Source of the DNA: Rhizodiscina lignyota
Lineage: Eukaryota
Assembly (NCBI GenBank): GCA_010015805.1
Contig: ML978121.1
Span: forward strand, 2,294,001 to 2,358,000
Reading direction: 5' to 3'
Length of the DNA: 64,000 nt
The notes under the pieces are model-generated. The model ran no database searches. It worked only from the letters and a program-made list of their open reading frames with translations, and was not told the origin of the DNA. This document shows positions 2,265 through 19,711 of the stretch, in pieces; position 1 is the stretch's first letter; each line of letters begins with the position of its first letter. The position numbers were made by a program, and so were the translations under genes.

Positions 2265-4042
2265 ATGGATGAAAAGAAAATCGACTCGAAGCAGGTGTCT
2301 GCGGAGCCCGAGGTCGTGCGGGAAAGCCTGGAAATCATCGAAGCTGCTCACGAGCATGCTGATGAGGCTCTCGGATTCGTCGAGAAGCATGAAGGCTTCA
2401 CCTTCACGCCAGAGCAGGACAAGGCAGTCCAGAGGAAGATTGACCGTCACATCATGCCATTGGTAAGACCTGGTATTCATCTCGGAGTGTCTAATTCACC
2501 ACTAACGACTACAGATGTTCGTCTCATATGTTTTCCAGTATATGGACAAGAGTGTCATGGCACAGAGTCTAATATATGGATTGCAAGAGGACTTGCACCT
2601 TGTCGGCCAGCAGTATAGCTGGTGCGGGTAGGTGGCCCATCCAACGTCTATTTTGGGATAGTCCTTTTCTGACGAGAATTTCAGCTCTGCATTCTATTTT
2701 GGCTACCTTGCCTTCCAACCCTTTGCTGGGCGCCTTCTGAACAAAGTCCCCCTGGGCCGATTTGTCTCCATTACTGCTTTCGCTTGGGCTATCATCCTAT
2801 TCTGCACACCAGGTGCTATGAACTTCTCCGGCCTCTTTGCCTGCCGATTTTTCCTCGGCGCTGCTGAGGGTGGAATTTCTCCTGCCTATGTCTTGATCAC
2901 TGGGATGTGGTATAAGAAAGATGAGATTCCTCAACGCATGACGTTCTGGTTCACTGGTAATGGTGTTGCCATCATTATCCAAGCCCTGCTCTCGTACGGC
3001 ATTGGCCATATAAAGACGTCTGTCGCAACTTGGAGATGGTTCTTCATCATCTTTGGAATATTGGGTTTGGCATGGGCCTTGGTTCTCTTCTTGTTCATGC
3101 CTGACAGTCCGCTCACTGTAAGTAATCATCCAAAACTCTATGCGGCCATAATGCCAATTATTGCTTCGTGGGACGAGTAACTAATGCTTTCTTGTAATAG
3201 GCCAAATTCTTGACTGATGACGAGAAGATTATTGCTGTTGAACGACTTAGAGCGAACAGAACAGGCGTAGCGAATAAGGAATTCAAGAAGAACCAATTTA
3301 TAGAGGGTCTGACGGATCCGCTCGTATATTACTCCTTCTTCTATGCAATCTCCTGCGTTGTTCCGAACAGCGGAGTATCATTTGTAAGTCGAGACTTGGA
3401 CACTACCTTTAAATGCGGCGCGCTAATTCATCATAGTTTGGTACGCTGATCATCAAAGGCATGGGATTCAACAACTTTATCAGCTCTGTCCTTCTTATGC
3501 CATTTGGAGCCGCCGAATGTATAGCCCTTATCTCTTCAGGCTACATCACCCGGAAGTGGCCAAACATGCGGTGCATCATGCAGGCCTTCTGGTGCGCTCC
3601 CGCTGTGCTCGGCGCTGCCTTGGTTTATTATCTTCCGGCGGGAAATACGGCAGGCCGCCTCGCTGGATTTTGTATTACGGGCTTCTCCAATACTGCGCTT
3701 CCGCTTCAATTCTCTCTTGTCAGCTCCAACATCGCCGGACATACAAAACGATCCGTGAGCAACGCAGTCATGTTCTTGGGGTATGCAACAGGCTTCATCA
3801 TTGGACCGCAGTTCTTCTTGCAAAGCGAATCGCCGAGATACCCGACTGGATTCAAGACAATGATGATTACCTTTGCAATTTCCTGTATTGCACCATTGTG
3901 TCTGTGGGGCTATTTGACGTTGTTGAACAGGCGTAAGGAGGCCCGACTCGTGGAGAGCGGGGGCGAAAATGTATATGCGAGGAATGAAGAGTTTCTAGAC
4001 TTGACGGATAGGGAGCAGATACATTTCCGATATTCTAAGTAG
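2265..4042 (+). CDS. MFS transporter, allantoate permease (DAL5/anion:cation symporter) family
   Basis: Five exons (~2265-2462, 2515-2627, 2684-3117, 3201-3382, 3437-4042). Motifs RKIDRHIMP, RFFLGAAEG, WYKKDE, NIAGHTKR, IIGPQFF and C-terminal FLDLTDREQIHFRY. Confidence 0.92.
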
Positions 4043-16654: not shown

Positions 16655-18181
16655 TCATACAACACTGTAAAATTGTGGCTCCTTGTCCGATTGCGTTTGC
16701 TGTTCTTGGTCCTGGCTAGGATCATGGGTTTCGGAAGAGACGCGTTGCTGATTGGCCTCCTTGTTGTCTGCTTGTACATACTCGTCATACGATAGGCCAA
16801 CGTTCTTTGCTTGTTGTCTGGTCTTGCGGGTGCGAAAAAGCCAAACCAAATGGCAGCCGATGATTCCGAATTCGAGAAGGAGCCTGTAAAGACTTAGATC
16901 TCTGACGGTGAGTATGGCTCTGACAGCAGCTTACGCGACAATGTAGGAGATGCCACCTAGCATATCCCAAGTCTTCTGCACAGCTTGGGGTCTAGTCAGC
17001 TTCTAAGCCGTGAAATGAAGCGTTGATATTCCATACCTAAAGCCAGAAGGGAGAACAAAGCGCCAAGGATGTCGATTGTCAAGAAGCGCATGCCTATTGA
17101 TGCAAGAATCAGACAGGCAAGTAATGATACTACGGCCACAAGTTTTACGGGAGACTTACTCAATCCAACAACTCGGCCCTTGCACTTGTAGATTTCCCAA
17201 TAAGGCGGAAGGAGACCGATGGCAAGCATTACTGTGGCGATAATGCTGAGCATATCAATCGGCCACGATACCCCGTGTTTGTAAGGTATCTATATTGCAT
17301 CAGTCACTACTATGGTATGCTTTGAGGTAGTAAAGCGTGGTCGACTCACACGTAGACCAAAGATCAGGACAGATTCCAGAGCCGCAAGTATGCCAGCGAT
17401 ACCCAACCCAGCGAGAGATGCCTTCCAGACAGGCCATTTCCTGAATGGTATCAGCACTGCGCGCTCGTAGACCCGAGGTAGCTACTGCACCTTTGATAAT
17501 AGGCGGTCTGTGACCAGCATATCATGCAAAGTACAATGAATACCTGCGGCTGCACTTGGACGGGGACGTTGAAGTTCTGCACATCATTAGACCTGGACAA
17601 CGCGAACCGAGGAGGTGGTTACTTGAATGATCGCATATGCACCGAGTGGGGGGTGCGCTGGGGTCATCAGCCGTTATCTCATTTCACTATCACCATGCTT
17701 GAACATTACCTGCAGCCCAGAGGAACAACATAACCAAAGGAACGCCATCGGCGCTCTTACGTCTCCAGTTCTTCCATATCCTGTATTCCATTAGAGATTC
17801 AACCACGCAGGTTGTAGAGTGGAGCGTACTGTGGGATCAACTATGAACGTGTTGGAATGCGATAAGCAATGATGACATATCGTGCGTGGATTTGTACCTG
17901 TATACACCAGAATCTTCAAAGAGTGTAAGTAGACTCAATGTGCGTTACGTGGATGACTCGGAACTCACACTGTCCTCTCGTTAGTCTAATTTAATGCAAG
18001 AGATGGTCGAACTTACTCGTCCCAATGAGCTATGCGAGGAATTTCGTGAGTATTAGCGGACAGGAAATATGCCGATGCAACTCACACCCAGAACCGTGGC
18101 TTGCTACTGTTGGTTAGTGGCCATGCAAGGCATGAGAGTTCGCAGGAAGCATACTACGGGGATAGTCTCTTGGGGCACCAT
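16655..18181 (-). CDS. PQ-loop repeat membrane protein (cystinosin/PQLC-type), ~14 exons including micro-exons
   Basis: The spliced product reads MVPQETIPVQATVLGLIGTIFWCIQLIPQIWKNWRRKSADGVP...NFNVPVQVQPQ...GLLPPYWEIYKCKGRVVGL...DILGALFSLLAL. All introns are GT..AG. Confidence 0.88.
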
Positions 18182-19711
18182 CTCTCTTTGACCATATATA
18201 GTGTTTAAAGAGCATTGATGAAGTGGTAATGGGGAAGCAATGAAGGGGGTAGAAGGTCTTAAGGGTAGATTTAGGTGGAGAGCAAACAGAAGGGAAATCA
18301 ATACCAAGAAGCGCTATTATTTTGATTTGACATAGGTCAATCAAGCGCAGCTACCGCAGGACGTAGCTCCTGCTGTACCTCATGTTGAGGTAAGCCCTGC
18401 CGCCCGCCCAATGCGAGAATGTGGAGAAGACGTTTCCGGTCATCAGTTGCCGGATGGAGCTGCCATTCCGTCATCAGATCACCTACAATTGGGTCTGACT
18501 GGCTGAGGAGGAGCTGCCTCAGGATTTGGCTCCATCTTCCAAGACTGTGGGGTAAGCTGAGTGTGAGTGATCGATGGAGACTATCCCTACGAAGCTGCAT
18601 ATTCCCATTTAGATTCGTTCCCTCCTGCATTGGACCAGACGTAGGTAGGGAATGAAGCGACACGCATGTGAAAACCGATAGAGAATTGTGGGGAATAAGA
18701 GACACAAAGCACCACATTTGAGTACAGGAGAGCGTGGTTGTGCAGGAGGGAGGGCTGGAAGGGCTCTAAAGGCACGATGTATACTCCAGGATGCTGCAGG
18801 TTGCTCTGGATGATCCGCGATTGGACGACAGGGCTGACAAGTTCACACAAGGCTAGACCAAAGAGGCTCTGGTCGGCGAATGGGAGGAGGTGGCAGCACT
18901 GGCGGGCTAAAATGGAGTCAAATCCGTGCGGTAAGGCACTCGGTTAAACGTGAACGCAAACGCGCGCCATCAAACAGTATGAACACCGACCGGTGGCGCC
19001 GTTCGCGCTGCCACCTTTGCCCACTTTCCAAGAGATCTGGGAAGGGCGGCACGAGTTACTTGCGCTCCGGTGTGATGGGTAAGCGAGAATATCATTTCCA
19101 AAGGAGAGGCGATGTCCCACGATAAGGGATATTGCGGAGAAGCGTGCACGTCGCGCGTCGAGAGGGACAATTGTAGCTTCGCCACTAGTATCTCTCATGC
19201 TCGATCCCGATCCTGCTAGCCCTTGACCATGATAGTCACACCATCCGTATCCGAAAGGTCCTCAGGGAACGAGTCTAAAGTAGTTCCCGGCGCAAGTCCA
19301 AGGTACTATTTGAAGTCTGATGTTGGTGGTCCATCCGCACGAGAAGTTGGGCGGACCGCTCCAAGCGCGGGAAAATAAAGAAAAGGGGCTCCACATAAAG
19401 ATGACGAGATGGGTATTAAGACAGCAGCGGATATGCTGTGTAACATCCAACATCGCATGGAACGTCCTGTCTCGAACCCCCAGAGATGGCGGCACCGTCC
19501 GCCCGTTACAAGCCGACAATTGCCCACAAGCAGGCGTCACGTGTTGCAAATTTTGCTCGACGTCACGCACTAACTTACTGCAAACGAAACAATCCCGGTA
19601 GAAATTTTACAAACTTGAAAATTCAAGCTTCAATTCAGTTCTGAGGATCATCTACCCTTTCTTCTGATACCTTTTGATACCCTGAGCGCCGGAGCTCATT
19701 CATTCGTTGAG

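Follow-up and report, generated by a model that had tools for sequence, protein, structure and literature searches.

A probable one-nucleotide exon in a PQ-loop protein gene of Rhizodiscina lignyota, with the same layout in orthologous fungal loci

Can a single base be an exon, and can a gene depend on it for its reading frame? The question is raised by a PQ-loop protein gene on the minus strand of a 64,000-nucleotide (nt) stretch of Rhizodiscina lignyota DNA (assembly GCA_010015805.1, contig ML978121.1, positions 2,294,001 to 2,358,000; the whole stretch is referred to as the window and is numbered from its first base), in which an earlier note, made from the letters alone, had placed an exon consisting of nothing but the T at position 17969. 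This T is very probably a genuine one-nucleotide exon, most likely included constitutively, that supplies the middle base of Ile20 in the first membrane helix of a PQ-loop transporter-like protein. Comparison with orthologous DNA indicates that the layout is inherited: the two flanking introns lie at positions 58 and 59 of the coding sequence (CDS) in at least 18 diverged lineages, inside a block of six introns that interrupts the first 86 nt. The gene and its 5' exons and introns are arranged as follows.

16655..18181, minus strand: PQ-loop protein gene of 14 exons, 13 introns and 277 codons plus stop (assembled model, matches to Pfam PF04193)
18155..18181, minus strand: exon 1, 27 nt, start codon 18181-18179 (spliced alignment)
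18104..18154, minus strand: intron 1, 51 nt, GTATGC..CTAAC..TAG (spliced alignment)
18086..18103, minus strand: exon 2, 18 nt (spliced alignment)
18030..18085, minus strand: intron 2, 56 nt, GTGAGT..CTAAT..TAG (spliced alignment)
18017..18029, minus strand: exon 3, 13 nt, ending ...GGGACGA, the final A being base 1 of the split Ile codon
17970..18016, minus strand: intron 3 (intron A), 47 nt, GTAAGT donor, GACTAAC branch motif, ACAG acceptor
17969..17969, minus strand: exon 4 (predicted), single T, middle base of codon A-T-A (Ile20)
17914..17968, minus strand: intron 4 (intron B), 55 nt, GTGAGT donor, GAAG acceptor
17898..17913, minus strand: exon 5, 16 nt, the initial A being the third base of the split codon
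17841..17897, minus strand: intron 5, 57 nt (spliced alignment)
17830..17840, minus strand: exon 6, 11 nt, most of the PQ motif (spliced alignment)
17781..17829, minus strand: intron 6, 49 nt, including the ATG at 17791-17789 that serves as the public start codon
17710..17780, minus strand: exon 7, 71 nt, remainder of the first PQ-loop repeat (Pfam match, spliced alignment)

Six introns, each 47-57 nt long, thus divide the first 86 nt of the CDS, leaving exons of 27, 18, 13, 1, 16 and 11 nt. The coordinates and letters given in the earlier note for the exon at 18029-18017, the 47-nt intron, the T, the 55-nt intron and the exon at 17913-17898 are all correct. At 17973-17963 the minus strand reads ACAG|T|GTGAGT, with the single base lying between a canonical AG acceptor and a canonical GT donor. 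Each flanking intron has its own donor, its own acceptor and a normal length (47 and 55 nt; the other 11 introns measure 46-66 nt, which is also the range of all 13). The upstream intron carries a CTAAC motif with the branch A located 11 nt ahead of the intron's final G, and the downstream intron carries the near-match ACTTAC. The exon reading frames on the two sides of the T differ by +1. When the T is included, the codon A-T-A (Ile) is formed, as had been proposed, and translation of the model yields an open protein of 277 amino acids (aa); when 18016-17914 (103 nt) is taken out as one intron, the predicted frameshift does occur and a stop is reached after 25 codons. Of 20000 dinucleotide-preserving shuffles of the 103-nt span, 710 contained an AG-T-GT arrangement with an intron of 40 nt or more on either side, and only 4 of those 710 also had a GTRNG donor and an upstream CTRAY branch motif.

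A custom spliced aligner (BLOSUM62; GT..AG introns of 35-300 nt, each costing 10 points; no gaps; any exon length) was run with the N-terminal 75 residues of the orthologue P0002 against window 17400-18400, and then with five more orthologues. The P0002 query returned exactly the exon set of the model, 17969 included. Micro-exons 2-7 (18, 13, 1, 16, 11 and 71 nt) were identical with P0002, P0008, P0065, P0126, P0099 and P0023 as queries, so that all six alignments distribute one Ile codon over three exons, as the earlier note had suggested; the P0099 alignment begins one codon later and gives exon 1 a length of 24 instead of 27 nt. All six upstream exons are intact, in frame and flanked by GT..AG, and the N-terminus that they encode is identical to P0002 at 48 of 75 residues. 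Masking the T lowered the best score from 216 to 196: the best GT-AG path without the T, 20 points lower, extended an exon into the GTAAGT donor, invented a 6-nt exon and lost conserved residues.

The assignment of the gene to the PQ-loop family holds, the reading frame of exon 7 matching PF04193 with 33.2 bits (gathering cutoff 22). The public protein P0001 (Rhizodiscina lignyota NA57DRAFT_70693), which from its residue 5 onwards equals the last 248 residues of the 277-aa model, scores 60.9 bits, while full-length orthologues reach 68-75 bits with a match that spans profile positions 2-60. The first PQ-loop repeat covers positions 2-60 only with the micro-exons; in P0001 as annotated it covers 21-60. 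In the part of a review that was available, the family is listed as class IV of the G-protein-coupled receptors ('GPCRs') of fungi or Stm1-like transporters (PMC13308352). A sequence search of solved structures gave no meaningful match (best E-value 0.56). The Stm1-like class, with S. pombe Stm1 and N. crassa Gpr-5/6 as its reference proteins, consists of PQ-loop vacuolar transporters of basic amino acids. In an alignment of eight homologues, no correctly modelled sequence is gapped at the split codon, the sole gap in the region belonging to the frameshifted Macrophomina model P0003, and orthologues with an uninterrupted codon show no length difference there. The motif around the codon is intact in 126 of 155 related proteins, with Val in 80 and Ile in 46. 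Val and Ile at this site follow from a codon of the form G/A-T-N, which is exactly what a retained middle T supplies.

Orthologous DNA, named in the earlier note as a place to look for the same twin introns, was obtained from metagenome contigs scanned with an alignment: 152 stretches fitted the pattern, of which 110 could be confirmed, and the 80 best loci were retained. The spliced aligner was run on all 80, and cases that it handled badly were inspected by hand. The twin introns were found again: the AG|T|GT layout of the one-base exon is present, at the same codon, in 31 of the 80 loci (31 of the 73 that could be assessed). Thirty of these came from the first aligner pass, and L077 was added by a shorter query because a one-residue downstream deletion had misled the gapless aligner. 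The codon is uninterrupted in genomic DNA in 42 of the 80 loci, where it always encodes Val or Ile; these loci act as length markers and were recognised by a strict motif (34) or with variant residues (8: L011-L013, L024, L030, L033, L034 and L051). The N-terminal part is off the contig or unaligned in seven loci (L020, L023, L036, L047, L048, L070 and L078). A locus with only one of the two introns was not found among the 80.

The twin-intron region is represented, counting the window, by 25 distinct sequences, and the single base is T in all 25. The split codon is GTN or ATA/ATT, and the layout runs from a 13(14)-nt exon through an intron of 43-72 nt, the T and an intron of 47-95 nt to a 16-nt exon. 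The upstream intron has a CTRAY motif 9-18 nt before its AG in 23 of the 25 sequences (CTCAC in the exceptions L068 and L069), and the downstream intron contains a CTRAY motif in 23 of the 25, the exceptions being the window and L035. Grouped at an identity of at least 70%, the intron sequences form 18 clusters; between clusters the median identity is 0.53, hardly more than the 0.49 of shuffled sequences (95th percentile 0.53). AG|T|GT has thus been held fixed while the remaining intron sequence drifted. The twin introns occupy CDS positions 58 and 59 in all 18 lineage representatives, and introns at CDS positions 75, 86, 157 and 192 are absent in varying combinations. The position of intron 1 (CDS nt 27) is common to 17 of the 18, the contig of the eighteenth beginning further downstream. 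The same six-intron block is seen in many orthologous loci and is wholly absent from others.

Some loci depart from this layout in detail. In L071 (about 2880-3014), the 16-nt exon is followed by a GC..AG intron with a GCAAGT donor, which was overlooked by the GT-only aligner. In L043, L055 and L059, the second intron lies one base earlier, so that exons 2 and 3 measure 17 and 14 nt in place of 18 and 13; the offset may reflect an intron shift or an ambiguity of the border. In the window itself, the two introns begin alike over about their first ten bases (18007-18016 and 17958-17968, minus strand; GTAAGTTCGA and GTGAGTTCCGA). The possibility that the twin pair arose when one intron was duplicated in tandem was considered and rejected: similarity between the two introns within a locus is weak (z from -1.3 to 4.3; 2.3 in the window) and explicable by shared splice motifs, which leaves the duplication idea unsupported.

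Evidence that bears on transcripts comes from relatives, Cenococcum-like loci among them. The exons of loci L068 and L069 measure 27, 18, 13, 1, 16, 11 and 71 nt, and their spliced N-terminus agrees with P0080, P0132 and P0133 at 64 of 64 residues. These three proteins are uninterrupted 314-residue open reading frames (ORFs) on Logan contigs 2.4-4 kb long. In genomic DNA the corresponding loci have 13 introns, and the same collection reports only a 77-residue last-exon ORF there. Since the 314-residue ORFs are uninterrupted and the corresponding genomic loci are not, they appear to derive from spliced RNA. At the split codon they have Val, in agreement with the codon G|T|G of L069; a single intron with its border shifted by one base would give Gly. 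Logan proteins also differ from annotated ones just where the micro-exons lie. P0126, found on 15 contigs, agrees with the annotated Cenococcum geophilum protein P0125 throughout its last 294 residues, the only differences lying upstream of the split-codon site, where the P0125 annotation takes the upstream exons in another frame; P0124 and P0125 belong to the same cluster as the 314-residue ORFs. P0138 differs from the Dendryphion nanum model P0137 only in having exactly 10 more residues, those that 13+1+16 nt encode, and the last 289 residues of P0064 are the same as in the Glonium stellatum model P0135, which keeps introns upstream.

Other explanations of the T have to be weighed against these data. 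The 103 nt might be removed as one intron with a non-canonical border displaced by one base (GT..AA or TA..AG), leaving the T unused and creating the codon AGA (Arg); the junction would then read ...ACGAGATTC..., the contrasting junction being ...ACGATATTC.... Such a border would preserve the reading frame, and the residues that it predicts do stand in public models, Mollisia scopiformis P0036 having Gly and Cercophora scortea P0042 having Arg. It requires non-canonical splice borders, however, and places Arg or Gly in the middle of a membrane helix, where none of the 126 intact proteins has either (Val or Ile only). The Logan ORFs matching L068 and L069 have Val where the shift predicts Gly, and the conservation of AG|T|GT together with a separate upstream branch site in 25 distinct sequences would be left unexplained; a displaced border is therefore regarded as extremely improbable. 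Very improbable, too, is that the upstream micro-exons are unused, the gene starting at the annotated ATG (17791-17789) or the N-terminal part being a decaying remnant. This is what the public model P0001 implies, and the search for sequencing runs gave one, X1, with a contig of genomic type, and no RNA run that could speak against it. The later start would nevertheless deprive the protein of its first membrane helix and of the PQ motif in repeat 1, and it conflicts with six upstream exons that are intact, in frame and flanked by GT..AG. In other species, uninterrupted Logan ORFs speak against the same kinds of truncation or skipping.

An indel from sequencing or assembly would likewise show itself as a frame problem of one base. 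A Logan contig of run X1, with a depth of about 154, is identical to window 17600-18300 (0 differences, 0 gaps), which argues against an assembly error, the contig being a separate assembly that may stem from the same reads as the window; with the same layout present at 31 other loci, the chance that an indel created the apparent frameshift is practically negligible. Inclusion of the T might, finally, be regulated, with the donor at 18016 joined to the acceptor at 17914 in some transcripts, so that splicing sets the protein level. Such skipping is mechanistically possible, and a few Logan ORFs of the Cenococcum cluster (P0129 and P0130) start further downstream, pointing to the existence of incompletely processed transcripts; yet no skipped form was seen in the data examined. 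The on/off switch envisaged in the earlier note finds no support, as skipping would simply lead to a stop after 25 codons. Regulated inclusion is unlikely, and it would be compatible with a real exon and hence is no true alternative.

The case for a constitutive one-nucleotide exon also has its weak points. The aligner favours paths that restore the frame and allows no gaps, and it misplaced exons in L077 and L071 before manual inspection. Intron 4 of the window lacks an exact CTRAY motif, ACTTAC being the nearest match. Splicing at 17969 in Rhizodiscina lignyota itself is deduced from the orthologues: a single sequencing run was found for the species, X1, which is not RNA and whose contig is genomic-type without joints, and a search with P0001 gave no second near-identical protein of the species, the next best matches having 50-55% identity, apart from a 172-aa fragment at 76%. 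The transcript origin of the Logan ORFs is likewise a deduction, made from their protein sequences.

The statement that gene finders miss such exons is borne out here. P0001 starts at the ATG inside intron 6 and thus without all six micro-exons; it opens with four residues read from the intron and then joins exon 7, so that the real N-terminal 25 residues are absent. Of the 155 related proteins, 29 lack the intact motif: 10 are ORF fragments without the region, and 19 are annotated proteins of named fungi, including Cenococcum, Glonium and Dendryphion, that are wrong exactly at this site. The errors comprise a truncated start (Rhizodiscina, Tothia and Staphylotrichum), an exact 10-residue deletion (Dendryphion, Aplosporella and Niveomyces), a 16-residue deletion (Bombardia), a micro-exon read in the wrong frame (Macrophomina, Neofusicoccum, Sarea, Thozetella and two models of Cenococcum), a retained intron (Lasiodiplodia and Glonium) and a wrong residue, namely Gly, Arg, Thr or 'AV' (Mollisia, Cercophora, Phyllachora and Pleurostoma). 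Gly or Arg at the site would result from borrowing the first G of the intron instead of the T. The gene structures of the named species (Neurospora, Macrophomina, Cenococcum 1.58 and others) are deduced from such protein anomalies and from look-alike metagenome contigs, and the anomalies are consistent footprints of a one-base exon rather than proof of it. Annotated orthologues with an intact N-terminus, such as Neurospora crassa P0065, may already contain the one-base exon silently.

The loci were assigned to classes by the closest named protein over the N-terminal 64-75 residues, so that their placement is indirect, and class membership of some genera follows established taxonomy. The organism of the window belongs to the order Aulographales of the Dothideomycetes. 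Of the loci with the one-base exon, L068 and L069 are closest to Cenococcum (Gloniales; 100%), and L018, L028, L037, L058 and L072 to a cluster that includes Dendryphion (Pleosporales; 78-89%). L042, L060 and L079 are closest to Sordariales (Sordaria and Neurospora; 89-92%), and L035, L046, L052 and L075 to Apiospora and Xylariales-type proteins (82-89%), while L043 and L055 are equally close to Mollisia (Leotiomycetes) and a Lecanoromycete (84-88%). The uninterrupted loci are nearest to lichen-forming Lecanoromycetes, Tuber and yeasts. This distribution is most simply read as one ancient gain in the ancestor that these classes share, after which some lineages lost the 5' intron block as a whole; the twin pair appears never to have been lost singly, only together with the block. 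On balance, and with some reserve, we favour the view that the AG|T|GT pair predates the split between Dothideomycetes and Sordariomycetes plus Leotiomycetes (probably Sareomycetes too), which would make it the deepest and most widely conserved one-nucleotide exon described.

How such an exon could be spliced follows from the arrangement of its signals. Two ordinary short fungal introns adjoin the T, and each may be recognised as a unit by intron definition. As the upstream acceptor and the downstream donor are 1 nt apart, two spliceosomes would be unable to occupy both at once, and the introns are presumably removed sequentially. Each splicing reaction would treat the neighbouring intron as its flanking 'exon', and either order would lead to the same mRNA. 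The pattern of both introns or none would fit loss by recombination with fully spliced cDNA, a process for which no special selection is necessary.

Juxtaposed acceptors and donors that are used stepwise are known from recursive splicing at zero-length exons (AG|GT ratchet points), for example in Drosophila Ubx. The PQ-loop gene shares the juxtaposition and the stepwise removal, but one coding base is kept where a ratchet point keeps none, and its introns measure about 50 nt rather than tens of kilobases; a zero-length recursive site is excluded here, the T sitting between AG and GT and being kept. Stwintrons, the spliceosomal twin introns of Pezizomycotina, also consist of two consecutively removed introns in the same fungal group (PMC9024468, as far as the available part of that paper describes them). 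In a stwintron, however, the internal intron splits a splice signal of the external one and everything is removed (PMC9024468, same part), whereas here the GT, the AG and the branch motif are unbroken. A stwintron is likewise excluded, because full removal of 18016-17914 shifts the frame and the splice signals are uninterrupted.

A one-nucleotide exon in the P450 gene CYP621A of Fusarium has been presented as the first fungal case (Nelson & Syed 2026, PMC12940212, according to the part of the text available, as for the comparisons with it below). In both genes, spliceosomal introns of a fungus leave the lone middle base of a codon within a conserved motif, between AG and GT; taken together, the introns look like one 'intron' of roughly double the usual size, a relative without introns acts as a length marker, and automatic annotation misses the exon (PMC12940212). 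Unlike the AG|G|GT of CYP621A (PMC12940212), the PQ-loop gene has AG|T|GT, and T fits neither splice-site exonic consensus. CYP621A is documented in one genus and by direct reads from the Sequence Read Archive (SRA; PMC12940212), the PQ-loop exon in at least 18 lineages and by sequence comparison. The loci with the PQ-loop exon are nearest to proteins of Dothideomycetes and Sordariomycetes.

The host gene of the single-nucleotide exon of Arabidopsis is reportedly APC11. That exon (Guo & Liu 2015, PMC4674806), in the portion of the report available, is constitutive and required for the frame, as proposed here, but occurs in a plant, in another gene and in another splice-site context. A long-read annotation of Coprinopsis cinerea lists, in the section at hand, 13 exons of 1 nt in 13 genes (PMC12230235). 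It indicates that fungal spliceosomes handle such exons and that their omission breaks gene models, and it differs in concerning a basidiomycete (PMC12230235, same section). A literature search that excluded supplements found no paper that describes a one-base exon for a PQ-loop gene, and none within the literature on stwintrons. The PQ-loop exon differs from the known cases in its T, which is not the consensus-friendly G, in its host gene and in its much wider spread over lineages.

It would add a third documented lineage of fungal one-nucleotide exons, and its T weakens the idea, put forward in the available part of the Fusarium paper, that G is favoured at such exons (PMC12940212). The public protein P0001 is without its first membrane helix, and functional or structural work on this family, as delimited in the accessible part of the review (PMC13308352), would start from wrong sequences. 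At least 18 natural versions, with differing intron lengths and losses of neighbouring introns, form a comparative series for splicing order and minimal exon size. Should the old origin and the block loss hold, nature would have supplied, in phylogenetic replicate, a system in which to ask how an intron-defining spliceosome sets the order of two introns with a common boundary of one base.

Several further observations were made in the course of the comparison. L006 contains an intron-free complete ORF of 278 residues (2992-3828), the N-terminus of which is nearest to a Pleosporales-like group whose other loci have as many as eight introns within the first 225 nt. L006 represents either a contig of cDNA type or a (retro)copy free of introns. 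Six uninterrupted loci on lichen-type contigs (L003, L004, L032, L019, L038 and L051) have in-frame stops within the N-terminal 225 nt, several of them at the conserved Trp after the PQ motif, and are probably pseudogenised duplicates. In the window, an ATG 14 nt upstream of the start codon, and out of frame with it, opens a 13-codon frame (18154-18195, minus strand) that overlaps the start and may be a small upstream ORF.

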